From UHGV virus genome UHGV-1619099: DNA of 12,455 bases; one strand, 5' to 3'. The notes beneath the pieces were generated by a model. It ran no database searches. It saw nothing but the letters and a program-made list of their open reading frames with translations, and had not been told where the DNA came from. The position numbers and the translations under genes were made by a program. Positions 1,661 to 12,455 of this stretch are shown in pieces. The DNA is from a virus. Position 1 is the first letter of the stretch. Each line of letters starts with the position of its first letter.

Positions 1661-2173
1661 ATGAGTAACAAAAACGAAGTATTCGAGTGGCTGATTGACC
1701 AACTACGGCAGCAGGTAAATAGCAACCCGTACAAGCAACAGTGCGAAGACCTGGCGCACGAGGTGTTGTCACTTAAGAATCAGTTACGCGACGCTTCGGC
1801 ACAGATTAAGGAGTTGCACCTGGCCTTGGTCAAAGCAACAGGTGATGCGGAGGCCTACAAACTTATACGCAAGGGTGGGTACATCGATGGTGGTAAGCGC
1901 TATGTAGTGGGTGAACATGTGCCTGGGACAACGGTAAATTGTCGGTGTACCTCGACGCCTGTACCGCCGGAACAATCTGGTTGCCGGAAAGAAGACGCGC
2001 AGGAATGCCACCATAACTGGCGATTAGTTAACGGAAAGGCTCCCGCCGTATGTATTAATTGCGGTGTGACCAAAGCTGATGAGTGCAAGCACGCCAACAC
2101 AGCGCAGTTACGTAAAGGCTTCGCGCCGGGGTTTACTAAAAAATGTCTGGATTGCGGGGCTAAACTTAAATGA
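1661..2173 (+). CDS. hypothetical Cys-rich protein (170 aa), N-terminal coiled-coil-like region and C-terminal Cys clusters (possible zinc-binding)
   Basis: ATG 1661 with gagaggagag SD (ORF track frame 1634..2173); motifs CRC, CINCG, CLDCG in the C-terminal half. Confidence 0.6.
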   Translation: MSNKNEVFEWLIDQLRQQVNSNPYKQQCEDLAHEVLSLKNQLRDASAQIKELHLALVKATGDAEAYKLIRKGGYIDGGKRYVVGEHVPGTTVNCRCTSTPVPPEQSGCRKEDAQECHHNWRLVNGKAPAVCINCGVTKADECKHANTAQLRKGFAPGFTKKCLDCGAKLK

Positions 2174-2373
2174 CCAGCATCTTATTTATATGGGTATTGT
2201 CCGCGGGCCAGATGCAACTGGCGGCATCAGAAACGTTTTACTCGATGGAGGCGTGCCAGTCAGCGGCACGCGCCGCAGAAAATGCGCACTTCCTGTTTCA
2301 GGGGGACAAACCCAACGATTCAGAGGTACGCGCTATCTGCTCCCCTAAGCGACTTGGTAAACAGGAGAAGTGA
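2170..2373 (+). CDS. small protein with hydrophobic N-terminus (signal peptide or TM-like), 67 aa
   Basis: ATG 2170 overlaps upstream stop (ATGA); N-terminus MTSILFIWVLSAGQMQLAA. Confidence 0.5.
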   Translation: MTSILFIWVLSAGQMQLAASETFYSMEACQSAARAAENAHFLFQGDKPNDSEVRAICSPKRLGKQEK

Positions 2374-2375
2374 TT

Positions 2376-2573
2376 ATGGCACAGAGATACGATTTAAAAG
2401 AAGACTGGGTTACTGGGTGTATTGACTTAGAGAAAGACGCAGACGGTGACTGGGTTGGCCACAGAGACTATGCGAAACTTGAAGCAAAGTTACGTGAATT
2501 CGCCGAACAGGTAATTAACGAACCTTGTTCGAAAGTTACAGAAGAAATGGCCCGCGAGATTCTCGGAATATGA
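2376..2573 (+). CDS. hypothetical protein (65 aa)
   Basis: ATG 2376 with aggagaag SD 5 nt upstream; ORF track starts at GTG 2370. Confidence 0.55.
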   Translation: MAQRYDLKEDWVTGCIDLEKDADGDWVGHRDYAKLEAKLREFAEQVINEPCSKVTEEMAREILGI

Positions 2574-2863
2574 GCCTTGCAACTGACATCCTGAAACGAA
2601 GCGGCCTTGCGCCGCTTTCACCGAGAGCGAACACCAGAATACACAAGCGACGCCGTAACGCGCTGCACCCGGAGATTCAAGCCAGACGCAAAGCAGTCCG
2701 CGCCTGCGGATTCCAGAACGGGAAGGCCGTGAATCTCGGTGAGTTTAAAACAAAGGAACGTGCAGCAATCGCTAATCGGTTATTTAATTACTGGAAATCG
2801 CTGGGGTACGATGATATTCCGACGAAACCGCAGAGACGACAATACATCTGGAGACACAAATAA
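2570..2863 (+). CDS. small basic protein with AP2-like DNA-binding signature (97 aa)
   Basis: ATG 2570 overlaps upstream stop (ATGA); segment AVNLGEFKTKERAAIANRLFNYW resembles the AP2 domain found at the C-terminus of phage HNH endonucleases (from memory); no HNH motif present. Confidence 0.5.
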   Translation: MSLATDILKRSGLAPLSPRANTRIHKRRRNALHPEIQARRKAVRACGFQNGKAVNLGEFKTKERAAIANRLFNYWKSLGYDDIPTKPQRRQYIWRHK

Positions 2864-2893
2864 ACAACTATTAGGATAATTCCTACCCGTGGT

Positions 2894-2933
2894 ATCCTCC
2901 AGTTACTGCATACTTAATACGCACCTGGAGGAT
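2894..2933 (+). promoter_or_regulatory. stem-loop sequestering the holin Shine-Dalgarno sequence
   Basis: atcctccag (2894-2902) is the exact reverse complement of ctggaggat (2925-2933); the right arm contains the SD ggagga (2927-2932), 6 nt upstream of the TTG start at 2939. Confidence 0.45.
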
Positions 2934-2938
2934 TCATC

Positions 2939-3247
2939 TTGGATAAATTTACTGAAACAGTGACGGGGTGGCTTCTCGCCGCCGCACTGGTCGGTGGATT
3001 GGTCGGACTAAGACAACATAAAAAGTCTATATCCGGGCCGATTGACGGACTGGTATTTCTTCTAACCGGCTTTGCGTGTGCCATTTTCGGTGCGCCTCTT
3101 GCCGCTCAATGGTTCGGTATTACCGGTGAGCGCGAGATAGCTGGCCTCGGATTCATCATTGCCATTCTCTGGATGCCTATCTATTCCCGCCTTTCTGGCA
3201 TCGTATCGGGTGGCGATATTTCCCGCCCGGGAGGACCTCATGACTGA
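2939..3247 (+). CDS. holin (three predicted TM segments, class I-like), TTG start
   Basis: 102 aa with three hydrophobic stretches (WLLAAALVGGLVGL; LVFLLTGFACAIFGAPLAAQWF; IAGLGFIIAILWMPIY); immediately upstream of the endolysin. Confidence 0.65.
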   Translation: MDKFTETVTGWLLAAALVGGLVGLRQHKKSISGPIDGLVFLLTGFACAIFGAPLAAQWFGITGEREIAGLGFIIAILWMPIYSRLSGIVSGGDISRPGGPHD

Positions 3248-3512
3248 GCTATTCTGGTTTGTCGTAATGCTGGCAATGGGCGCTTCGTCCCTGTTCAACG
3301 TGTATAATGAGCACGTGGACGACGGGTTATTCGGGCGTGTGCTCTATATCCTGACTGCGATTGTCTGCGCCGCCGGATGTATCCACCTGTTACAGGGCAG
3401 CGTGTCACCAACGTTGCCTGAGACGTTAATCACATTAGTCGCGCTGCGTCAGATTCGTCAGGCGTGGCTGTCGTACGGAGGACATAAGCGTGTCTCGAAA
3501 CATTTCAGATAA
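3240..3512 (+). CDS. small membrane protein with two TM segments (second holin/antiholin-like)
   Basis: ATG 3240 overlaps the holin stop; hydrophobic stretches LFWFVVMLAMGASSLF and VLYILTAIVCAAGCIHLL; sits between holin and endolysin. Confidence 0.5.
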   Translation: MTELFWFVVMLAMGASSLFNVYNEHVDDGLFGRVLYILTAIVCAAGCIHLLQGSVSPTLPETLITLVALRQIRQAWLSYGGHKRVSKHFR

Positions 3513-3975: not shown

Positions 3976-4141
3976 TGGACGAATACGAAGGCGTTTAGTA
4001 TTCTGGTTAGGCCAAGTTTTTCGTATTTGCTAACGGCAACAGAAGATTAAACAACATTGAGGGCATTCCGGGTATCATCACCCTCGCGGACCTGTAACAA
4101 GGTCGGGCCAAAGTGCGATAACGCGTGCCGGAGAATCTCTG

Positions 4142-4170
4142 TTGACACCTAAGACTAATCCGACGATACT
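4142..4170 (+). promoter_or_regulatory. sigma70-like promoter candidate (TTGACA, 17 bp, GATACT)
   Basis: Perfect -35 ttgaca at 4142-4147, 17-bp spacer, -10 gatact at 4165-4170. Confidence 0.35.
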
Positions 4171-4209
4171 TAAATCACCTCCTGTTCCATCCCTCTGCTC
4201 TCCAGTTTT

Positions 4210-4244
4210 ATCCCGGCCCTGACCCAGCTGGGATTTTTTTTATC
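4210..4244 (+). terminator. terminator-like GC-rich palindrome followed by a T8-9 run
   Basis: atccc (4210-4214) pairs with gggat (4230-4234) around ggccctgacccagct, followed by tttttttt. Confidence 0.5.
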
Positions 4245-4263
4245 TATTTTCTGCAATGACTAG

Positions 4264-4292
4264 TTGACTATTACCCTCGACCCTATTATATT
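4264..4292 (+). promoter_or_regulatory. sigma70-like promoter (TTGACT, 17 bp, TATATT) for the downstream small-gene cluster
   Basis: -35 ttgact 4264-4269, 17-bp spacer, -10 tatatt 4287-4292; first gene starts at 4327. Confidence 0.5.
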
Positions 4293-4326
4293 TACTCCAT
4301 CGACAACGAGAACGGAGTAGAGAGAA

Positions 4327-4476
4327 ATGAAAATCACAGATATCGAAGCATTCAAAGACGCACAACTGATGGCACGCATCGCCGTTGGTAACCTGAGCAA
4401 CAGCATTCCGGCGGACGCGTTCTGGTTCGCCGCGATGCAGACACTGAAAGCAGCTTATGCAGGAGATGAGAAATGA
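4327..4476 (+). CDS. hypothetical protein (49 aa)
   Basis: ATG 4327 preceded by gaacggagtagagag SD; stop overlaps next start (ATGA); below ORF-track cutoff. Confidence 0.5.
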   Translation: MKITDIEAFKDAQLMARIAVGNLSNSIPADAFWFAAMQTLKAAYAGDEK

Positions 4477-4628
4477 CAGTTTATATTGTTACTGGTTGGC
4501 GATGTCTGCGTGATACAGAAATTATTAACGTGTTTGCAAATGAAGAGAAGGCCAAAAAAGCTGCGGAGTTAGTGCGAACCGCTGGCTACTACGATGTTGT
4601 TGAAATTAATAATTACGAGGTTAAGTGA
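4473..4628 (+). CDS. hypothetical protein (51 aa)
   Basis: ATG 4473 overlapping upstream stop; ends TGA 4626-4628 overlapping the next ATG. Confidence 0.5.
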   Translation: MTVYIVTGWRCLRDTEIINVFANEEKAKKAAELVRTAGYYDVVEINNYEVK

Positions 4629-4786
4629 TGAGCGAACAAGGTCAAGTAAGCCAACCATTACGGGTTGGCCGTAAAGTCAGTCACACCCCGTTCCCGACAC
4701 GTGAGGAACTGATGAAACGTAACAGTTTCCCGGGGCCGGACAAGAACAAGTATCTCAATCGCATGTGGGGAGAGTGTAAAGAATGA
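4628..4786 (+). CDS. hypothetical protein (52 aa)
   Basis: ATG 4628 (TGATG overlap); stop TGA 4784-4786 overlapping the next ATG. Confidence 0.5.
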   Translation: MSEQGQVSQPLRVGRKVSHTPFPTREELMKRNSFPGPDKNKYLNRMWGECKE

Positions 4787-4974
4787 GACGTAAACCGTTA
4801 CCAAAAGTTGGCGATAGCTGGTTAACCCCTGAGTGGAGAAGGCTGAAAATAACAGCAGTTGTCCGTGAAAGACACTCAATGCCACAGTTAGATGTTAAGG
4901 CTGTTTGGTGTCTGAATTTTAACGATGGTACTTGCGAGTACGTTGACGAGGACGAGTTTTATGACCGACCGTGA
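4783..4974 (+). CDS. hypothetical protein (63 aa)
   Basis: ORF track 4783..4974; ATGA overlap with the upstream gene. Confidence 0.55.
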   Translation: MRRKPLPKVGDSWLTPEWRRLKITAVVRERHSMPQLDVKAVWCLNFNDGTCEYVDEDEFYDRP

Positions 4975-5134
4975 GTATGAAAAAGCATGCGTCGAATCCG
5001 CGACTGGTGAATCTGAAATAGTGTGGATTGACGCCCACATCGAACACCACTTACGGCAGGTAGATAATCTTATGGAACGCCGCCGTGAACTGATTAACCG
5101 CTTCAACCTGAACAAAGGTGACGCCAATGCCTAA
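4961..5134 (+). CDS. hypothetical protein (57 aa)
   Basis: ATG 4961 in the frame of ORF 4925..5134; overlaps the upstream stop. Confidence 0.5.
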   Translation: MTDREYEKACVESATGESEIVWIDAHIEHHLRQVDNLMERRRELINRFNLNKGDANA

Positions 5135-5375
5135 AATCACAATCACATCACTTGAGCGCCGTATTCTGGTACTCGAGTCAGAGAAACAGACGTTAGGCGG
5201 ACAACTGTCAATTAACGGTGAGTACCAGTTAGCCGCATTTAAGGTTCTTCTCATGTTGTTGAGAGGAGAAGAGGAAAAGATGAACGCCTGCGAGCATGAT
5301 TACCGCCTGCATTTAGTTGATGGGGTACATCGAGCCACATGCTTAAAATGTGGTAAAGCGTATGAAGTCGCCTAA
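5127..5375 (+). CDS. hypothetical protein with C-terminal zinc-ribbon-like motif (CEH...CLKCG)
   Basis: ATG 5127 overlapping upstream stop (ATGcctaa); ORF track frame 5118..5375. Confidence 0.5.
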   Translation: MPKITITSLERRILVLESEKQTLGGQLSINGEYQLAAFKVLLMLLRGEEEKMNACEHDYRLHLVDGVHRATCLKCGKAYEVA

Positions 5376-5544
5376 ACCAGTAGTAATTGATGGTGTCCTG
5401 TGGAAGCCCTACTCGGTTAACCACATCGACGCCGACGGGAAGAAGTTTAGCTTCTACATTTTTGCAATTAGCCGTGAGCACGCCGCCTGTGTGGTCGACG
5501 ATATACGAGAAACAGCGTGGCTTGGTGATGAGATAGTGGGGTGA
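5362..5544 (+). CDS. hypothetical protein (60 aa)
   Basis: ATG 5362 in the frame of ORF 5350..5544; overlaps the upstream gene. Confidence 0.45.
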   Translation: MKSPKPVVIDGVLWKPYSVNHIDADGKKFSFYIFAISREHAACVVDDIRETAWLGDEIVG

Positions 5545-5548
5545 GAGT

Positions 5549-5632
5549 ATGAGTCTTGAGGTGGTTATAGGTCTGGTCGGTCTTAGTTACTTCATTGGGC
5601 TGTTGGTTGGATTTCTGTGGGGTAGATACTAA
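5549..5632 (+). CDS. 27-aa hydrophobic micro-protein (single TM-like helix)
   Basis: ATG 5549 with ggtgagag SD; MSLEVVIGLVGLSYFIGLLVGFLWGRY; stop TAA overlaps the next ATG (TAATG). Confidence 0.35.
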   Translation: MSLEVVIGLVGLSYFIGLLVGFLWGRY

Positions 5633-5802
5633 TGTTCAGTGACATTAACGCAGCAATCGAGGAAGCAATCTGGCGTCGCTACAACGGCGAACAGCAACGG
5701 CACTTCTGCCTGGTGCAACACGGAAACATGATTGCCGTAGTGCAGGACCGCGATAACAAATATCCGAATGCGATGTGGACAACGAGGAATTTTTTAGGAT
5801 GA
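5632..5802 (+). CDS. hypothetical protein (56 aa)
   Basis: ATG 5632, stop TGA 5800-5802 overlapping the next ATG at 5799; competes with antisense ORFs 5645..5899 and 5679..5951, which I consider shadow ORFs. Confidence 0.45.
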   Translation: MFSDINAAIEEAIWRRYNGEQQRHFCLVQHGNMIAVVQDRDNKYPNAMWTTRNFLG

Positions 5803-6035
5803 TTACCAGCATTCCGAACCTGATTAAAGAATTTGGCACGATGGCGGAGACATGCCGACAAACTGGACTCAATGAAATGACGATTGCGAAGTACAGCAAA
5901 GACGTCGATTGCGAGCGCCATGTAATTTATAACAATCGTCTCATGACGCACGTTAAGACAAGCCCGGTGTTATTCACGCGCCGTGGTATCACTAAAACTG
6001 AGCTACGAATTGCTAAAGAGGAGAGCGGGGAATGA
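5799..6035 (+). CDS. small helix-turn-helix protein, possible transcriptional regulator
   Basis: ATG 5799 (frame of ORF 5775..6035); HTH-like segment TMAETCRQTGLNEMTIAKYSK. Confidence 0.5.
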   Translation: MITSIPNLIKEFGTMAETCRQTGLNEMTIAKYSKDVDCERHVIYNNRLMTHVKTSPVLFTRRGITKTELRIAKEESGE

Positions 6036-6304
6036 TTGAATATGATAACTACCACATAAACCGGTGTGAGGCCCTTGAATTTTTGTCCAGAAACTTCCAC
6101 GATTTCCCAGAACACATGCCTAATGTGCGCGAAGTTGCGGAGGGTATTTCCGAGAACATATTCAAAGGCTGGCGATTCGTCGTTATTGATTCTGGTGAGT
6201 TGGTTTTCGCTGATTGCTTTTCACCATGTATTCGTAAAATAGACCTTGAGGAATTTAATGCAACTTTTAGTCTTTCCGAATGCCTGGACTATAGCCGTAG
6301 CTAA
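6032..6304 (+). CDS. hypothetical protein (90 aa)
   Basis: ATG 6032 overlapping upstream stop (ATGA); ORF track. Confidence 0.55.
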   Translation: MIEYDNYHINRCEALEFLSRNFHDFPEHMPNVREVAEGISENIFKGWRFVVIDSGELVFADCFSPCIRKIDLEEFNATFSLSECLDYSRS

Positions 6305-6362
6305 CGACCATTACGGCGGCGATGGTAAGAGAGCACCGCGACGCGGCCTATATAACTGATAC

Positions 6363-6384
6363 AAGCCCTCTATGGAGGGCTTTT
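6363..6384 (+). terminator. rho-independent terminator
   Basis: Stem aagccctc (6363-6370) / gagggctt (6375-6382), loop tatg, followed by ttctg. Confidence 0.55.
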
Positions 6385-6385
6385 C

Positions 6386-6415
6386 TGTACATCCCACCCA
6401 ATCCACTTATATAAT
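6386..6415 (+). promoter_or_regulatory. promoter candidate with perfect -10 TATAAT (6410-6415) and weak -35 tgtaca (18-bp spacer)
   Basis: Read directly; placed between the terminator and the packaging genes. Confidence 0.35.
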
Positions 6416-6421
6416 CCCTTT

Positions 6422-6440
6422 AGACGCGTAGGGCGCGTCT
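6422..6440 (+). promoter_or_regulatory. inverted repeat agacgcg-N5-cgcgtct in the terS leader (operator-like or 5'-UTR hairpin)
   Basis: 7-bp perfect arms at 6422-6428 and 6434-6440; related agacgc copy at 6459-6464. Confidence 0.35.
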
Positions 6441-6480
6441 GGTGCGCTCTGATGGTCAGACGCATACGAAAGGGGATTCT

Positions 6481-7026
6481 ATGAAGCTGAAACTTAAGCG
6501 GCCATCGCCAGAGGTGGTGCAAGCTGCACATGAAGAAGCTGTTAGCGCAAATCGTCGCCGTAAACGACCGCGCGGTAAACAGAGCCTTTATCAATCATCC
6601 CGTAATTCCGCCGCGCTGTGGGACCCGGACTATTGCGACGCGTTAATCGAGTTCTTCGACCGCACGTCGTGGGAACTTGTGCCTACGTCCAAGGGTGATG
6701 AACGCCCGTTGATTCAGGATAAACCACCGTCACTGGCCCGATTCGCCTTACACATAGGCGTCACTATCCCGATTATTAAGCTGTGGCTGCGTGAGATTCC
6801 CGCATTTGCGGAAGCCTATGAAACAGCACAGGCACTGGAAGAGGCGTATTTCACCGAGACAGGGGCCGCCGGCATCTCTGCTACGTTTGCTGCCGCTAAG
6901 CTGGGCCTTAGTAAAGAGAAACCTGTTGAATCGACAGAAGAAACCGCCCCGACGGAGATTGTTTTCAGTGTCGCGGAGCCTGTAGGTAAAATCGTAACAA
7001 CGAATATGGGTGAGGTAGAGGAATGA
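6481..7026 (+). CDS. terS: terminase small subunit (putative)
   Basis: 181 aa, basic N-terminal region, directly upstream of and overlapping the terminase large subunit (ATGA); ATG 6481 with aaagggga SD; call rests on synteny and size. Confidence 0.5.
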   Translation: MKLKLKRPSPEVVQAAHEEAVSANRRRKRPRGKQSLYQSSRNSAALWDPDYCDALIEFFDRTSWELVPTSKGDERPLIQDKPPSLARFALHIGVTIPIIKLWLREIPAFAEAYETAQALEEAYFTETGAAGISATFAAAKLGLSKEKPVESTEETAPTEIVFSVAEPVGKIVTTNMGEVEE

Positions 7027-8273
7027 GTATTCAGCTATCGGCCCCTCAGGCACTGTTCCTGAATTGTGACAATAAATACAAGGCATACGTCGGCGGCTTC
7101 GGTAGTGGCAAGACATTTGTTGGCTGCCTTGACCTGCTTACGTTTATGCTCAAGCACCCTGGTACGCGCCTTGGCTACTTCGGCCCGACCTACCCGGCTA
7201 TCCGTGACATCTTCTACCCGACATTCGAGGAAGCGGCTAACCTGCTCGGCCTTGATGTGCTGGTTAAATCCGGCGACAAAGAAGTCGTGGTTACTCGCGG
7301 TAAGACGGTGCTAGGAACGGTTATCTGCCGTTCGATGGATAACCCTGGCTCTATCGTAGGTTTCAAAATCGCTGCTGCGGTCGTGGATGAGCTGGATGTA
7401 CTGAGCCGCGAGAAAGCCGAGCTGGCGTGGAACAAAATAGTAGCCCGTATGCGTCTGGTTATCCCCGGTGTAATTAACCACATCTCTGTCACCACGACGC
7501 CGGAAGGGTTCAAGTTCGTCTATGCCAAGTTCAAAGAGAATCCAACACCGAGTTACTCGATGGTGCAGGCTTCCACACACGAGAATGCGCGATTCCTGCC
7601 ACCGGATTACATCAGTTCGCTGACCGAGACTTACCCGGCGCAACTGATTAACGCGTATCTGAACGGTGAGTTCGTCAACCTGACATCCGGCAGCGTGTAT
7701 TACGCCTATGACCGTCGCAAGCACCGCAGTAAAGAGACAATTCAGCCGGGCGATACACTGTACATCGGGCAGGACTTCAACGTTACAAAGAACGCCAGCG
7801 CTGTGTATGTGCAACGTAAAGACGGCTGGCACGCGGTGGCGGAACTGAAGGGCCTGTTTGACACGCCGGACACCGTGCGTGTTATTACTGAGAAGTGGAA
7901 GTCGCAAGGCCACCGCATCGTCGTTTACCCGGACGCCAGCGGCAAGAACCGCAAAACCAACTCGGCGTCAATCTCCGATATCGCGTTACTACAGCAGGCA
8001 GGGTTTGATGTTCGCGCTAAATCCGCCAACCCCCCTGTTAAAGACCGTGTTTTAGCGGTGAATACCGCGCTGGAAAAAGGTAAGCTGTGGGTTAACGACC
8101 ACTTATGCCCTGAGATAGCGAAGACGCTGGAGCAGCAGGCATACGACGATAACGGGGAGCCAGCTAAAGATGGCGTCATTGACCATATGGCGGATGCTCT
8201 CGGCTATCCTGTAGTTTACGAGATGCCGGTGGTTAAACCCGTAATCAACATCCCGGTGACTTTCGCACTTTAA
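7023..8273 (+). CDS. terL: terminase large subunit
   Basis: 416 aa; N-terminal Walker A P-loop VGGFGSGKT; sits between terS-like gene and portal. Confidence 0.8.
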   Translation: MSIQLSAPQALFLNCDNKYKAYVGGFGSGKTFVGCLDLLTFMLKHPGTRLGYFGPTYPAIRDIFYPTFEEAANLLGLDVLVKSGDKEVVVTRGKTVLGTVICRSMDNPGSIVGFKIAAAVVDELDVLSREKAELAWNKIVARMRLVIPGVINHISVTTTPEGFKFVYAKFKENPTPSYSMVQASTHENARFLPPDYISSLTETYPAQLINAYLNGEFVNLTSGSVYYAYDRRKHRSKETIQPGDTLYIGQDFNVTKNASAVYVQRKDGWHAVAELKGLFDTPDTVRVITEKWKSQGHRIVVYPDASGKNRKTNSASISDIALLQQAGFDVRAKSANPPVKDRVLAVNTALEKGKLWVNDHLCPEIAKTLEQQAYDDNGEPAKDGVIDHMADALGYPVVYEMPVVKPVINIPVTFAL

Positions 8274-8285
8274 GAGGATTATTCA

Positions 8286-9767
8286 ATGTTAACAATGAAC
8301 GGTCAGAATCAGGGTGTTAAGACAAAACACCGGGAATGGCTGCATCACTTCAATAAATGGCAGAAGGTACGCCACGCGCTGGAAGGTGACCTTATTCGCT
8401 ATCTGCGCAACGTCGGGAAGAACGAACCCGACCCGGCCTACGCGGCGCAGCGCCAGGAAGAATACGAGAATGGTGCTATCTGCTACAACTTCACTAAACG
8501 TACCCTGGCGGGGATGGTGGGGTCGGTGATGCGCAAAGACCCTGAACAGATTATTCCGCCTGAACTGGAGTACCTGTTACGTAACGCCGATGGTTCTGGT
8601 GTCGGGCTGTGGCAGCACGCGCAGGATACGCTAATGGAGATTGACTCGGTTGGTCGTGGCGGGTTGCTGGTGGACGCCCCGGAGACAGCCGCGGCAACGG
8701 CGGCAGAACAGAACGCGGGATTACTAAACCCGGTCATCGCTTTCTATACCGCAGAGAACATCATCAACTGGCGACTAACTCGCGTTGGTTCAGTTAACCG
8801 CGTGACAATGGTCGTGTTGCGCGAAGTATGGGAATACTCAGAACCGGGTGCAGAGTTCGAAACAAAGTTCGGTGAGCAGTATCGCGTTCTCGATTTGATT
8901 GACGGGCGCTACCGCCAGCGCATTTACCGCTTCGATGCCGGAGGTGGTGCTCAGGGTGAAGTAATCGAAATATTCCCGGAACTTGGCGAACAGTTGCGCG
9001 GCAAAATCCCCTTCACGTTCATTGGGGCGAGCAACAACGACGCAACCATCGACGATGCGCCTTTGCTACCGTTGGCTGAGCTCAATATCGGACATTTCCG
9101 CAACAGCGCGGACAATGAGGAGTCCAGCTTCGTTGTAGGCCAGCCCACTCTGTTCATTGCCCCGGGCGAGAACATGAGCATGGAACAGTGGAAAGAAGCT
9201 AACCCACACGGCGTGCGCATGGGGTCGCGTTCAGGTCATAACATCGGTTACGGCGGCAATGCGTTTCTGGTTCAGGCCGGCGAGAACAACCTCGCCAAGC
9301 AGAACATGCTGGATAAAGAGAATCAGGCCATCCAGATTGGTGCGCAGCTTATTACCCCGACGCAGCAAATCACCGCTGAATCTGCCCGACTGCAACGCGG
9401 CGCTGACACCTCAGTTATGGCGACAATCGCACGTAACGTAAGTATGGCGTATACAGATGCGTTGCGCTGGGTAGCTGCGATGCTAGGGTTGCGCGAAGAC
9501 ACAGAGATTGAGTTCAAGCTGAATATGGAGTTCTTCCTGCAACCTATGACAGCTCAGGACCGCGCTCAGTGGATGGCGGATATTAACGCAGGCCTGTTAC
9601 CGGCTACGGCCTACTATGCTGCGTTGCGCAAGGCCGGGGTAACTGACTGGACAGACGAGGATATCCAGAACGCTATCGAAGACGCACCTCTGCCGTTGGG
9701 TGCTGTTGCTCAGGTGGCGGGAGAGATTCCGCAGTCGGCGCAACAACAGGACACCACTCAGCCGTAA
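8286..9767 (+). CDS. portal protein
   Basis: 493 aa immediately downstream of terL with aagagga SD; size and position typical of portal proteins; acidic C-terminal tail. Confidence 0.7.
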   Translation: MLTMNGQNQGVKTKHREWLHHFNKWQKVRHALEGDLIRYLRNVGKNEPDPAYAAQRQEEYENGAICYNFTKRTLAGMVGSVMRKDPEQIIPPELEYLLRNADGSGVGLWQHAQDTLMEIDSVGRGGLLVDAPETAAATAAEQNAGLLNPVIAFYTAENIINWRLTRVGSVNRVTMVVLREVWEYSEPGAEFETKFGEQYRVLDLIDGRYRQRIYRFDAGGGAQGEVIEIFPELGEQLRGKIPFTFIGASNNDATIDDAPLLPLAELNIGHFRNSADNEESSFVVGQPTLFIAPGENMSMEQWKEANPHGVRMGSRSGHNIGYGGNAFLVQAGENNLAKQNMLDKENQAIQIGAQLITPTQQITAESARLQRGADTSVMATIARNVSMAYTDALRWVAAMLGLREDTEIEFKLNMEFFLQPMTAQDRAQWMADINAGLLPATAYYAALRKAGVTDWTDEDIQNAIEDAPLPLGAVAQVAGEIPQSAQQQDTTQP

Positions 9768-9803: not shown

Positions 9804-11696
9804 ATGCTATTAACTTTAGCACCACAGGGTTTAACTATGAGCTTACTTACATCACTCATCAGCCATCAGATATGGCTGCAACGCACCGCATCCGGTGAGG
9901 TGAAAGACCTCGCACCGTTCATTAAGGAGATGCGGGATGAAATAAAACGGCAGGTGCTGTTATTCGGTGATGACGGGCGGAGCACTGCGCGACTGAATAA
10001 ACTGTTACTCGACCTTGAAGAAGCGCTAACCGGACTTACCGGCGATTGGCAAACAAAGCTGACAGAAGACCTTAAGGAACTGGCGGCATACGAGGCTGAG
10101 TGGAACGTAAAGACACTAACCGCCAACGTTAACGCGGAATTTGTTACGCCTACCGCCGAACAGGTGTGGGCCGCCGCCGATTTTCAGCCATTATCGTTAA
10201 ACGACAAGCCTGTTGACTTCACTAAATTGATGTCTGGTTGGGGTGAAACCGAAGTCGCCCGCCTCGTAACTGGAGTTAAGATGGGCTTTGTACAAGGTCA
10301 AACCACACGGCAGATTGTTAAGAATGTCGTAGGCTCTGGTGGGCTGGCCGACATCTCAGAACGTAACGCGGCTACAGTAATCCGCACCGCGCTGTCTCAT
10401 GTATCCAACGAAGCCCGTAACGAGACGTACCGCCAGAACGACGACATCATCGAGAAATACGAGTGGGTATCAACGCTGGACAGCCGTACCAGTACGATTT
10501 GCAGAGCCAGAGACAGGATGACGTGGGAAATCGGTAAAGGGCCGATGCCTCCGGCCCATCATAATTGCTTACTTGGGGATACTGTAGTATCTACCGGTAG
10601 TCCGGTTTCTAACATTTTTAAACGGGCGTACAAAGGCACTATAGTCTATGTCTCTACAAGGTCCGGTCGCACCTTGTCTATCACCCCAAACCACCAGGTA
10701 TTGACTACCAATGGTTGGGTTGCTTCCGGCCTTCTCAATGTAGGCGACAAGCTCGTGTGCGCTAAGGACTCTGCGCTCTCTCTCAAGCATAAGGAACACA
10801 ACGTTGTAGCCAAGTTCTCCGATTTGTTTAGTGCGGCTAATGTAGCGGTCAATCCTGCGGCGGTCCGTACAAGCCCAACCACCACCGAAGACTTCCACGG
10901 CGACGGAACCGACGGCGAAGTCGAGATTGTACTTGTCAACCGCCTTTCCTGGGATAAAGTCAAGTCCGGACTGAATAAGCAAATCATTGACAAGGAACTC
11001 CCAGTGGCTTCCCGCATTTATGACTCCCTCTCTGGCTTTGGCTCTGCGAAGCAGTTCAGCATGGTCGGCCTTTCTCCCTCGGACAGCTTCATGCGCCGCG
11101 GCGGAGAGAGCGAGGCGCTCCTCGGGAGTAGCTTTAGCCATTCTGATAAACATAGCGTCGCTGACACCGCGAATACTAACGCCGTTCTCTCTGAGAACGC
11201 GTATGACTGGGTTACACGAAACGCCGATAATCTTTCCGATTTCAACTGGTCCGATGCCGTCGGTATAGAGCTTGATGATGTTGTCGATTTGGTCTTTAGT
11301 GAAGCTGATTTTTGCGGGCATGTTTATAACCTCGAAAATGAACAGAACTGGTATCTCGCAAATGGAATTATAGCACATAATTGTCGCTCAACAACCGCGC
11401 CAGTAATCAGTTCTGAGTTCGACTTCCTCGATAAAGGCGCAAAACGCGCGGCTAAGGGTGCGGACGGTGGTATGCAGGTAAGTGCAGACACCACCTATTA
11501 TGAGTTCCTCAAACAACAACCTGCGTGGTTTCAGGACCAGGCGCTCGGCCCTGTTCGCGGTAAGATTTTCCGTAACAGCGGTATATCACCGGAAGAGTTT
11601 CGCGTAATATCTGTAGATGGTTTCGGGAATCCGCTCACGCTTAAGCAGATGGCGGAACTCGATAAACGTGTTGCTGATTATCTGAAAGGGGATTAA
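9804..11696 (+). CDS. head morphogenesis protein (MuF / SPP1 gp7-like) interrupted in-frame by an intein; start codon uncertain (9804 or 9837)
   Basis: 630-aa continuous ORF after the portal; without the insert the extein is about 358 aa and carries PPAHHN|CRS at the junction, resembling the conserved H-x-N-C motif of MuF-like proteins (from memory). Confidence 0.65.
   Translation: MLLTLAPQGLTMSLLTSLISHQIWLQRTASGEVKDLAPFIKEMRDEIKRQVLLFGDDGRSTARLNKLLLDLEEALTGLTGDWQTKLTEDLKELAAYEAEWNVKTLTANVNAEFVTPTAEQVWAAADFQPLSLNDKPVDFTKLMSGWGETEVARLVTGVKMGFVQGQTTRQIVKNVVGSGGLADISERNAATVIRTALSHVSNEARNETYRQNDDIIEKYEWVSTLDSRTSTICRARDRMTWEIGKGPMPPAHHNCLLGDTVVSTGSPVSNIFKRAYKGTIVYVSTRSGRTLSITPNHQVLTTNGWVASGLLNVGDKLVCAKDSALSLKHKEHNVVAKFSDLFSAANVAVNPAAVRTSPTTTEDFHGDGTDGEVEIVLVNRLSWDKVKSGLNKQIIDKELPVASRIYDSLSGFGSAKQFSMVGLSPSDSFMRRGGESEALLGSSFSHSDKHSVADTANTNAVLSENAYDWVTRNADNLSDFNWSDAVGIELDDVVDLVFSEADFCGHVYNLENEQNWYLANGIIAHNCRSTTAPVISSEFDFLDKGAKRAAKGADGGMQVSADTTYYEFLKQQPAWFQDQALGPVRGKIFRNSGISPEEFRVISVDGFGNPLTLKQMAELDKRVADYLKGD
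10566..11381 (+). mobile_element. intein (Hint domain, class 1: Cys1 ... His-Asn / Cys+1), 272 codons
   Basis: Block A CLLGDTVV at 10566; block B ITPNHQVLT...GWVASGLLNVGDKL; blocks F/G VYNLENEQNWYLANGIIAHN ending 11381; +1 Cys codon tgt 11382-11384; the ~170-aa linker between blocks B and F has no LAGLIDADG or HNH motif in this frame. Confidence 0.8.
10569..11321 (-). CDS. putative homing endonuclease encoded antisense within the intein: N-terminal HTH + Vsr/DUF559-like (PD-(D/E)xK-related) nuclease domain, about 250 aa
   Basis: Minus-strand ORF 10569..11378 from the ORF track; likely start is the ATG at 11321 (GAGG SD 8 nt upstream); HTH-like IIKLYTDGIGPVEIGKIIGVSCNPVIRVLRENGV; nuclease core LDFAVGSVAVEVFGGGW ... 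DRRRIDRYISRTKQIGELGYNVVFLMLE resembles the Vsr/DUF559 pattern. Confidence 0.7.
   Translation of the reverse strand: MPAKISFTKDQIDNIIKLYTDGIGPVEIGKIIGVSCNPVIRVLRENGVSIRGVSDAMFIRMAKATPEERLALSAAAHEAVRGRKADHAELLRRAKAREGVINAGSHWEFLVNDLLIQSGLDFIPGKAVDKYNLDFAVGSVAVEVFGGGWACTDRRRIDRYISRTKQIGELGYNVVFLMLERERRVLSAHELVAYIEKAGSNPTIGSQYLVVWGDRQGATGPCRDIDYSAFVRPFKNVRNRTTGRYYSIPK
11367..11395 (-). promoter_or_regulatory. extended -10 promoter (TGcTATAAT) on the minus strand driving the antisense endonuclease gene
   Basis: Reverse complement of 11367-11375 is tgctataat; weak -35 ttgttg 16 bp upstream; overlaps the intein C-terminal splice-junction codons. Confidence 0.4.
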
Positions 11697-12157
11697 TGAT
11701 GGGCTTTTTCAAAGTAACTGATGTGCCGTCGCGTCGCGTAGTCCAGTACGCTCGTGTGTCTGGCTCCGGCGAGAACGTAACCTACGTTGAAGATGAAAGT
11801 GTACTAGGTACACCTGTAGACGAGATGCCGTACGCGGATAAAACCGGTATCGCACTCTCCGCGGCAGGTATGCTTTATGAAATTCCGTATCTGGCCGATG
11901 CTGGCGATGTGTATTTCTCCGTACAACCGCAAGGCACCGAACTGGTGGACGGCAGCGCAATTATCACTGTTGAAGTTAAGGCGGGTAAAGCCCCGTACGC
12001 GCTGACCTGGTACAAAGACGGTAAGGAAGTTGTAAACGCCCCGGAAGAGGCCTCGTCACTGACGGTTAATGCGGTCGGTGAATACTTCGTTAAAGTTACT
12101 GATGCCGATGGGGTAGAGGCGGTGAGCAAGGCGGCGAAGGTCACTAAACCAGAATGA
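11696..12157 (+). CDS. Ig-like domain protein (possible head decoration or accessory protein), 153 aa
   Basis: ATG 11696 overlaps upstream stop (TAATG), aggggat SD; C-terminal half (YALTWYKDGKEVV...GEYFVKVTDADG) looks like an Ig-like beta-sandwich repeat. Confidence 0.55.
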   Translation: MMGFFKVTDVPSRRVVQYARVSGSGENVTYVEDESVLGTPVDEMPYADKTGIALSAAGMLYEIPYLADAGDVYFSVQPQGTELVDGSAIITVEVKAGKAPYALTWYKDGKEVVNAPEEASSLTVNAVGEYFVKVTDADGVEAVSKAAKVTKPE

Positions 12158-12160
12158 TAA

Positions 12161-12180
12161 AAGGCCCCTTACGGGGCCTT
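12161..12180. terminator. bidirectional terminator hairpin between convergent genes
   Basis: Perfect 8-bp stem aaggcccc / ggggcctt with loop ttac; on the minus strand it is followed by a U-rich tract (ttttatcatt). Confidence 0.6.
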
Positions 12181-12184
12181 AGTT

Positions 12185-12409
12185 TCAATACCCAGTCTCT
12201 TGGGTTAAGTTAATCTCTTTATTCCAGACGTTTTGGTTATACTTTTCACGAATCTGGCGCATACTTCTACCGAGCGCGGCGGATAGAGACATATCCCCGT
12301 CTTCTTGCGCGTCCAGTTGCATCTGCTGAAGCTCAATATACGCCGAAATATCGCCGCGTAATTCAGCCTGTTCATACTCTTTTTTAAGAAAGGAACCAAG
12401 GTCCTGTAC
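12185..12409 (-). CDS. 3' end of a minus-strand gene (hypothetical), truncated by the window end and adapter
   Basis: ORF 12185..12445 reads ...VQDLGSFLKKEYEQAELRGDISAYIELQQMQLDAQEDGDMSLSAALGRSMRQIREKYNQNVWNKEINLTQETGY; the apparent N-terminus MSRGLGDVYKRQ is translated adapter. Confidence 0.45.
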   Translation of the reverse strand, partial: VQDLGSFLKKEYEQAELRGDISAYIELQQMQLDAQEDGDMSLSAALGRSMRQIREKYNQNVWNKEINLTQETGY

Positions 12410-12455
12410 CTGTCTCTTATACACATCTCCGAGCCCACGAGACACTGAGCGATCT
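12410..12455. other. Nextera adapter read-through (library artefact): mosaic end + read-2 adapter + 8-nt index position + start of flow-cell sequence
   Basis: ctgtctcttatacacatct (12410-12428) + ccgagcccacgagac (12429-12443) + actgagcg (12444-12451) + atct. Confidence 0.9.

Follow-up and report, generated by a model that had tools for sequence, protein, structure and literature searches.

An antisense gene for a putative homing endonuclease, with a predicted Vsr-like fold, within the MuF intein of a Kagunavirus-like phage

The virus genome UHGV-1619099, analysed here as one stretch of 12,455 nucleotides (nt; hereafter the window), contains a MuF-like head-morphogenesis gene that is interrupted by a contiguous class-1 intein, and the DNA of this intein carries, on the opposite strand, a second gene for a protein with a helix-turn-helix (HTH) module and a predicted Vsr-like nuclease fold (Table 1). 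The phage is a Kagunavirus-like siphophage (Guernseyvirinae), the closest GenBank relative of which is Escherichia phage Snoke (94% identical). The original prediction, made from the letters of the window, proposed a composite selfish element with splicing and homing on opposite strands of the same DNA, and it was supported on every point that could be computed.

The host gene matches the Pfam models Phage_Mu_F (E-value 2.7e-9, above the gathering score) and Intein_splicing (4e-10), the "head morphogenesis" family PHROG 241 (1.3e-147) and, with 94% identity, Snoke gene 004, which is annotated as "intein-containing capsid morphogenesis protein". The intein itself, whose originally proposed limits proved exact once Cys1, the His-Asn pair and Cys+1 had been located, scores 42.8 bits against PF14890 (Intein_splicing; cut-off 35.8) and contains the splicing blocks CLLGDT, TPNH (the TxxH of block B), GHVYNLE and IIAHN↓C, the arrow marking the junction. 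It splits the MuF gene at PPAH(P/H)N↓CRS, and the intein-less allele of phage XY2 reads unbroken across the same site as PPAHPN↓CRSTT (...CCAGCCCATCCTAAT↓TGCCGAAGT...). The motif GHVYNLE...NGIIAHN is kept in 61 IMG/VR loci. The sense open reading frame (ORF) is a single frame of 630 codons with 0 stops across the nuclease gene. Protein splicing is predicted from the essential nature of the host gene and from the near absence of nonsynonymous change in the splicing (Hint) blocks described below. At N-extein residue -2 the window has His (AHHN↓C, codon CAT, 10560-10562), and all eight sequenced relatives, as well as the intein-less XY2 allele, have Pro (AHPN↓C, CCN); being near the splice junction and the putative cleavage site, this residue could alter splicing efficiency or nuclease recognition.

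On the minus strand, the ORF spanning 10569..11378 is placed as originally described: the second intein codon, TTA (10569-10571), gives its stop codon TAA when read in reverse complement, and the penultimate one, His CAT (11376-11378), likewise gives its first ATG. The openness of this codon-aligned antisense frame is more than chance would give, because the same frame holds 12 stops in 347 extein codons versus 1 in 272 intein codons, the latter being the ORF's own stop (P ~7e-5). Two adjustments are needed. The likely start moves inward to the second ATG, and the gene extends beyond the linker: its final 50-65 codons cover blocks A and B at one end, and its 5' signals lie over Hint blocks F and G at the other.

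Which strand is selected was assessed from a gapless alignment of the 1860-nt gene in nine sequences, the window and eight Guernseyvirinae relatives. In the two exteins, variable columns at sense codon positions 1/2/3 number 98/65/214 and 24/14/92, and the ratio of nonsynonymous to synonymous substitution rates (dN/dS) is 0.05-0.11 in the sense frame and at least 1 in the antisense frame. The intein middle (the linker of Table 1) shows the reverse pattern, 114/23/56, with substitutions piling up at sense codon position 1, that is, at antisense position 3; here antisense dN/dS is 0.03-0.19 and sense dN/dS 0.8-3.6, in pairs with an antisense synonymous divergence (dS) of up to ~1.2. The sense strand dominates again in the Hint-N region (sense dN/dS 0-0.37, antisense 0.5-1.5), and in the Hint-C region the variable columns are 0/1/11 and sense dN/dS is near 0. 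Comparison with eight distant loci, from phages of Gordonia, Vibrio, Klebsiella, Aggregatibacter, Cronobacter, Idiomarinaceae, Acinetobacter and Helicobacter, gave 50-145 bits (E-values 2e-10 to 2e-43) for the antisense translation of the middle versus 0-55 bits for its sense translation; over the Hint-N part the sense translation matches distant homologues at 40-75 bits, and the antisense translation matches none of them except the Vibrio phage. The patterns of dN/dS, codon position and distant homology thus indicate that the middle ~550 nt are protein-coding on the minus strand and merely kept open on the plus strand, in agreement with the original prediction. The alignment of homologous inteins that it had suggested as a check finds the antisense frame conserved in the intein middle, and the frame is intact across very distant phages.

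We regard it as practically certain that the antisense ORF is a real, selected protein-coding gene. The opposite view, that it is a non-coding by-product of sense codon usage or that the sense middle is a genuine novel in-frame domain, can appeal to the codon-aligned antisense frame being the most permissive one for long accidental ORFs and to genome annotators calling the sense ORF only, but it is scarcely credible in the face of a sense dN/dS of ~1 or more, a reversed codon-position pattern and the improbability of a stop-free antisense frame given above. Moreover, the antisense protein is confidently modelled into a known nuclease fold and has homologues of 23-41% identity, while the sense middle appears unstructured (AlphaFold2 prediction from a shallow alignment: predicted local distance difference test score, pLDDT, of 23-43 for intein residues 69-226 versus 61-79 for the Hint parts) and its weak distant similarity is an echo of antisense conservation. 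One such echo is seen in the sense linker (consensus of alignment A2; window 10870-10900), where a seemingly conserved (A)EDFHGDG mirrors AVEVFGG(G)W, the active-site strand of the antisense protein, and could mislead searches for an in-frame domain.

The constraint between the strands is reciprocal. Among the 17 Leu and 14 Ser codons of the nuclease gene, TTA, CTA and TCA are absent (P 0.0017 from phage codon usage); they are likewise absent from seven other embedded copies, versus 12 occurrences in the free-standing copy of Acinetobacter phage P1068. As these codons are stops on the sense strand, their avoidance implies that openness of the sense frame is itself selected.

Translation of the nuclease most likely starts at the second ATG (11321..11319, Met20 of the longest form), which would give a predicted protein of 250 amino acid residues (aa). 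The sequence GAGGT lies 7 nt upstream of this ATG, and comparable Shine-Dalgarno-like sites precede the start in eight distant loci. Synonymous codon choice was examined in 45 distinct, diverged IMG/VR loci by binomial tests, which assume independence among what are in fact related loci. The His codon of block F, which reads ATG on the other strand when it is CAT, is CAT in 37 of 42 cases (background 34%, P 6e-13), while the block G His codon, which corresponds to the first ATG, is CAT in 18 of 45 loci and unbiased. ATG 11321 is preferred for this reason, and the first ATG (11378) was rejected as the main start. Three loci have a stop between the two ATGs.

The same bias extends to other codons of blocks F and G. 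The block F Leu codon underlying the Shine-Dalgarno-like site is CTC in 28/45 loci (background 25%, P 2e-7), and in block G Ile is ATT in 35/41 (24%, P 1e-16), the next Ile is ATA in 21/28 (24%, P 1e-8), Val is GTA in 11/14 (13%, P 5e-8) and Thr is ACA in 17/31 (17%, P 2e-6). The intervening codons for Val, Tyr and Glu show randomised synonymous sites, as does the codon for Gly in block G. Read on the antisense strand, block G (Ile-Ile/Val-Thr/Ala) becomes TGnTA(T/C)AAT, located 45 nt before the start in every locus, with the core TATAAT in 19 loci and TACAAT in 9. Close relatives keep this candidate extended -10 motif, as do the Vibrio, Aaphi23 and Idiomarinaceae phages, and TGNTATAAT has a single occurrence in the 12.4-kilobase (kb) window, both strands taken together. 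As a promoter, it would allow the nuclease gene to be transcribed by the host RNA polymerase without dependence on the late operon.

Fold assignment relied on a profile of the family and on a structural model. A profile built from alignment A1, which comprises the window's antisense protein and 13 database homologues, found the catalytic domain of I-Bth0305I (PDB 3r3p) as the best solved relative (E-value 9.7e-6), with HTH proteins next. Weak Pfam matches were also seen among the relatives, to REase_MTES_1575 in 5 of 14 (best E-value 4.7e-5), to DUF559 in two and to Vsr in one. The AlphaFold2 model of the antisense protein (mean pLDDT 83) consists of a three-helix HTH module, a helical region with an invariant AAHxAxRG motif and an alpha/beta core, and a Foldseek search with this model ranked 3r3p first (probability 1.00). 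By this modelling the antisense protein has a Vsr-like nuclease fold. The HTH and the Vsr/DUF559-like fold that had been recognised by eye were thereby upheld by profile, model and Foldseek; the Pfam match expected for the protein itself stayed below threshold. Three acidic residues, E108, D134 and E143, are invariant in A1 (Table 1). Of 58 distinct IMG/VR relatives, 49 have His, 5 Ser and 4 Ala directly after the Trp that corresponds to W149, and the clade without His (among its members the window, Salmonella phages and Vibrio-like phages) shares the motif W-[AS]-x-[ST]-[DE]-[KR]RRI. No claim of a conserved functional domain is made for the C-terminal tail: this candidate was rejected, since free-standing and embedded copies do not align there and antisense dN/dS is 0.5-1.5.

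Searches with tblastn matched the antisense protein in 106 of 50,697 phage records. About 80 of these are Guernseyvirinae (75-97% identity), and the remaining matches (23-41%) come from phages of Vibrio, Gordonia, Klebsiella, Aggregatibacter/Haemophilus, Cronobacter, Idiomarinaceae, Edwardsiella and Acinetobacter and from a Helicobacter prophage. Nearly all lie under genes annotated as MuF, minor capsid, head morphogenesis or hypothetical protein. Eight of nine loci that were inspected, Snoke included, have the gene antisense to a MuF gene with a stop-free, codon-aligned sense frame. In IMG/VR, a single peptide pattern recovers 462 relatives; among the best 80 of these, the nuclease ORF is inside a codon-aligned open frame of the opposite strand (363-1284 aa) in 79. 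When 50 such opposite-strand ORFs were searched, 44 matched Intein_splicing, 32 Phage_Mu_F and 4 Phage_min_cap2, and the consensus junction is PxPPxHPN↓C...HN↓CRC. The word-indexed protein database yielded few homologues (14 and 13): gene finders seldom predict the antisense ORF, and divergence of the sense linker is fast. The intein itself is annotated in Snoke and mentioned for Jerseyvirus phages; in the inspected records the only annotation of the antisense gene consists of fragmentary "hypothetical protein" calls.

The ninth inspected locus is phage P1068 (OQ689089). Its MuF gene (1806-2699, plus strand) is complete and intein-less (...PMCKCRAKLIIEIP..., running to its own stop codon), and its nuclease homologue (2693-3469, minus strand; "hypothetical protein") is a free-standing, convergent gene with a 7-nt overlap with the MuF stop region, ~20 codons from the CKCR site and 37% identical to the Klebsiella phage copy over 220 aa. 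A split-intein, or "fractured", version of the element was considered for P1068 and rejected on this arrangement. The arrangement would be compatible with a published scenario in which an endonuclease gene that stood free and was specialised on this site came to be nested in an intein, although the change may also have run the other way. A few copies look damaged. In IMGVR_UViG_3300028214_000030 (L027; 1168-1860) the nuclease frame is disrupted and 3 stops fall in the sense frame, and in MG969409 and MG969408 (GE_vB_M4 and GE_vB_HIL, one of them confirmed as flagged UNVERIFIED) the nuclease match is split or partial; these three copies could reflect decay or sequencing error.

The intein is polymorphic among related phages. 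A query made from the spliced junction is matched without interruption by at least 145 records, mostly of E. coli Kagunavirus, which are thus intein-less, and 57-82 related records carry the intein. Kagunavirus-like carriers are limited to the window, Snoke and GZMU_E2010, versus about 100 E. coli phage records that are contiguous across the junction. The intein of the window is 95.8% identical to that of Jerseyvirus LP31, whereas the exteins are 73.4% identical. Sliding identity between the two, 47-78% further upstream, climbs to 83-92% over the 70 nt that directly precede the insertion site, is 95-100% in the intein and falls from 88% to 73% within ~90 nt on its 3' side, as homing with co-conversion would predict. 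Near-identical inteins in diverged exteins, together with the intein-less relatives, point to recent homing. The discordance is reversed between Salmonella phages vB_STM-ZS and SaI_NFG_5577 (L015 and L014), where exteins are 90.2% and inteins 80.6% identical, which implies more than one intein lineage among Jerseyvirus-like phages.

These data also bear on whether the nuclease gene is a decaying relic, in an intein that is now inherited vertically and with an antisense frame that will erode. The damaged-looking copies and the loss of a catalytic His in the window's clade (below) would agree with decay, yet such a relic would hardly maintain an antisense dN/dS of 0.03-0.19 at antisense dS of up to ~1.2 or an intact frame in 79 of 80 diverse loci, nor would vertical descent place near-identical inteins in 73%-identical exteins; we consider it very improbable.

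With good though not full confidence, on sequence evidence, we propose instead that the intein and the antisense gene form a composite mobile element in the MuF gene, the antisense protein being its putative homing endonuclease. On the plus strand, the intein would be translated within MuF and then excise itself, joining ...PPAHHN to CRSTT...; selection at the protein level acts only on the intein ends, and the linker needs only to be free of stop codons. On the minus strand, the codon-aligned frame of the same DNA encodes the HTH and Vsr-fold nuclease of 250 aa (E108, D134, E143), whose start codon, ribosome-binding site and, probably, extended -10 promoter would be written in synonymous positions of Hint blocks F and G and whose Leu and Ser codons avoid sense-strand stops. 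If intein-plus and intein-less phages met in one cell, the nuclease would cut the intein-less MuF gene near ...CCGGCCCATCCTAAT↓TGYCG..., and during recombinational repair the broken allele would acquire the intein together with the nuclease gene and short stretches of flanking DNA. The analysis shows the anatomy of the element, the selection on either strand, the fold, the homology, the presence/absence polymorphism and the discordance of intein and exteins. The homing pathway, with transcription and translation of the nuclease and DNA cleavage by it, and the splicing reaction are predicted steps of this scheme.

Several observations weigh against this proposal. With the antisense protein alone, Pfam gives only sub-threshold matches (HTH_7, 0.09; REase_MTES_1575, 0.15); the score on REase_MTES_1575 (PF18741) is 12.6 bits with a cut-off of 38.2, and no Pfam gathering score is reached, including those of Vsr (PF03852) and DUF559 (PF04480). 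PHROG and single-sequence PDB searches likewise gave sub-threshold or irrelevant matches, such as designed helical repeats. A standard sigma-70 promoter scan upstream of the nuclease gene found neither a promoter nor a -35 element, transcription of the gene would run head-on against the late structural operon, and the codon-bias tests share the relatedness of their loci. Discordance between intein and exteins could also stem from ordinary mosaic recombination in phages. Finally, the His that is thought to act as general base in Vsr (H69) and I-Bth0305I (H213) is lost in the window's clade, with Ala150 in the window, and the final Asp (D222; Vsr D97) is not clearly present: the aligned segment RIDRYISRTK carries D158 shifted by one position, a residue that the family does not conserve. 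We therefore speak of a Vsr-fold nuclease related to the EDxHD family and not of a strict member, and the enzyme may nick DNA, use a different mechanism or be inactive.

It is accordingly conceivable, although in our view unlikely, that the antisense gene is real and selected but no longer encodes, or never encoded, a homing endonuclease that cuts both strands. Its product might then bind DNA as a regulator, act as a nickase or serve as a weapon against phages in the same cell, and be kept for some other benefit to the phage or the element. The altered active site, the intact HTH module and the apparent fixation of the intein in many Jerseyvirus genomes would suit such a role. The invariance of E108, D134 and E143 across the family, identities that are discordant in both directions with short-tract decay at the junctions, and the sporadic distribution of the intein in Kagunavirus would not, and the conserved W-[AS]-x-[ST]-[DE]-[KR]RRI points to a rewired active site and not to decay. 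A homing endonuclease thus remains our preferred reading. Its broadest form, which we put forward only tentatively and would not yet bet on, is that intein and antisense nuclease are obligately interlocked through the signals in Hint G/F and the restricted Leu and Ser codons, that this design has persisted as it spread across MuF genes in phages of at least three bacterial phyla, and that the enterobacterial/Vibrio clade cuts without the general-base His, using a rewired active site of EDxHD/Vsr lineage.

The coordinates of all features are collected in Table 1.

Table 1. Features of the MuF locus and its surroundings in the window, with the residues of Vsr and I-Bth0305I that correspond to those of the antisense protein (HMM, hidden Markov model; SD, Shine-Dalgarno)
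Feature	Position	Strand	Details	Vsr	I-Bth0305I
Lysis genes	upstream of small terminase subunit gene		first in gene order		
Small terminase subunit	6442-7026				
Large terminase subunit	7023-8273				
Portal	8286-9767				
MuF-like head-morphogenesis (minor capsid) gene including intein	9837..11696 (or 9804 start)	+			
Upstream half of putative homing site and co-conversion-like tract, N-extein	10497..10565		identity rise versus LP31		
Class-1 intein	10566..11381	+	816 nt, 272 codons; Cys1 TGC 10566-10568; His-Asn 11376-11381 (Asn AAT 11379-11381); then Cys+1 TGT 11382-11384		
Hint N-terminal splicing region (blocks A, B)	10566..10760	+	~65 codons; overlapped on - strand by endonuclease ORF tail		
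Antisense ORF, longest form	10569..11378	-	269 aa; program ORF list		
Antisense gene, HTH and predicted Vsr-fold nuclease, putative homing endonuclease	10569..11321	-	250 aa; stop TAA 10571..10569; extendable to ATG 11378		
Vsr-like nuclease core (predicted)	10722..11006	-	residues 106-200		
Sense-frame read-through linker	10761..11309	+	183 codons, open, not selected as protein		
W149-A150	10872-10877	-	HMM alignment to 3r3p	W68-H69	H213 (general-base His) at A150
E143	10893-10895	-	invariant in A1	F62 position	extra conserved acidic residue
D134	10920-10922	-	invariant in A1; HMM alignment	D51	D196
E108	10998-11000	-	invariant in A1; HMM alignment	E25	E170
Three-helix HTH DNA-binding module, N-terminal (predicted)	11187..11297	-	residues 9-45		
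Hint C-terminal splicing region (blocks F, G)	11310..11381	+	~24 codons		
SD-like GAGGT	11329..11333	-	antisense of block F Asn-Leu codons AAC-CTC		
Candidate extended -10 promoter TGCTATAAT	11367..11375	-	45 nt upstream of start; antisense of block G ATT-ATA-GCA (Ile-Ile-Ala)		
Downstream half of putative homing site and co-conversion-like tract, C-extein	11382..11470		identity fall versus LP31		
Hoc-like decoration gene	11696-12157				

Two in-frame starts are possible for the MuF ORF, ATG 9804 (630 aa) and ATG 9837 (619 aa), and a start equivalent to the latter, with a ribosome-binding site, is annotated in most relatives, including Snoke. Downstream of the Hoc-like gene a GC-rich hairpin (12161-12180; AAGGCCCCGTAAGGGGCCTT followed by a T-run) separates it from a convergent minus-strand ORF (12185-12445) that runs towards the window end, and Snoke has a bidirectional terminator annotated at the matching position. 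Read-through from this unit would offer another route to antisense RNA across the intein. In the stretch 3976-6440, about 350 nt on the 3' side of the endolysin gene hold no ORF of at least 35 aa and are followed by small plus-strand ORFs of 49-90 aa; the G+C content of this run is 0.46-0.47 versus 0.52-0.58 in the structural genes. Inside the structural module, GC skew is negative only at 10401-11200. Searches of the window for tRNA and Rfam features found none. Segments of the window recur verbatim in the IMG/VR contig IMGVR_UViG_3300045988_011391, where the 750-nt endonuclease region is matched at 100% identity.

The element packs two selfish functions, one per strand, into ~0.75 kb, and the marks of selection on each can be told apart from one region to the next. 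An architecture that one preprint had described in actinobacteriophages is thereby extended to the well-studied and genetically tractable Guernseyvirinae of E. coli and Salmonella, in which homing, antisense expression within a late operon and splicing with a 180-residue junk linker are directly testable. Standard phage annotation misses the antisense gene, which is unannotated or mis-called in nearly all of the ~80 GenBank carriers. The nuclease is a candidate long-target DNA-recognition enzyme, and the tolerance of the intein for a large unconstrained insert is useful for intein engineering.

Free-standing homing endonuclease genes next to their target are known from "intronless homing" and from collaborative homing with introns, in T-even phages and cyanophages. 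The nuclease homologue of P1068, a separate gene beside an intein-less MuF gene, resembles these systems, whereas the nuclease gene of the window is nested in the intein and does not stand beside the target gene. The closest solved relative, I-Bth0305I, founds the comparison at the enzyme level: it belongs to the "EDxHD" Vsr-like homing endonuclease family (Taylor et al. 2011, PMC3239194, PDB 3r3p) and likewise has a Vsr-like catalytic fold behind modular DNA-binding motifs and a tie to a self-splicing element in a phage gene. Its E170, D196 and extra acidic residue have equivalents in E108, D134 and E143. In contrast to the window's nuclease, it is encoded in a group I intron and not antisense in an intein. 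The Ala at the position of H213 in the window happens to match one of the two substitutions (D196A, H213A) of the inactivated I-Bth0305I domain that was crystallised.

In "fractured genes", split inteins have a free-standing Vsr-like or GIY-YIG gene between their halves (Dassa et al. 2009, PMC2677866), and Vsr-like genes are described there only in this position. The window shares with them a Vsr-like endonuclease gene of the free-standing type in intein-coding DNA of phage-like sequences, and the same evolutionary model, a free-standing endonuclease gene invading an intein, would apply. Unlike fractured genes, where host gene and intein are divided over two genes and spliced in trans, the intein of the window is contiguous with 0 stops in the sense frame; the host genes also differ, being DNA-metabolism enzymes there and MuF here.

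A contiguous intein with an antisense endonuclease, for which the original prediction named no precedent, has in fact been described. Full MuF inteins of actinobacteriophages carry antisense VSR-like homing endonucleases ("VSR -1 ORF"; Gosselin, Arsenault and Gogarten, bioRxiv 10.1101/2025.01.02.630785), and the same preprint cites older cases of antisense LAGLIDADG genes in inteins (Synechocystis DnaX, Chloroflexus SpoVR-like; Gorbalenya 1998, Gogarten 2002). As cited there, the latter also have splicing and homing on opposite strands, with another nuclease family and other host genes. The supplementary table of the preprint lists Vivi2, Angelicage, Affeca, Fosterous, ViaConlectus and Sampson as "minor capsid, MuF-like ... 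VSR -1 ORF", and these same Gordonia phages were matched by the window protein in tblastn (E-values 9e-25 to 4e-10, 27-36% identity; Vivi2 gp14, 9e-25 and 35%). In both sets a contiguous class-1 intein is inserted in MuF before the Cys of N↓CR(C/S), and a codon-aligned (-1) nuclease with a Vsr-like fold and a helical N-terminal extension is encoded on the opposite strand. Given the matches and the shared insertion site, the window holds a homologous member of the described class in a phage group outside the scope of that preprint. The differences are that its hosts are E. coli and Salmonella Guernseyvirinae, a group the preprint does not mention, and not actinophages; that the catalytic His is lost in the window's clade; and that here the start codon, ribosome-binding site and candidate promoter are placed inside blocks F/G and the ORF tail over blocks A/B. 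What the present analysis adds to this class is the candidate expression signals embedded in the Hint blocks, the reciprocal codon constraints between strands with a free-standing copy as control, and a clade without the canonical general-base His.

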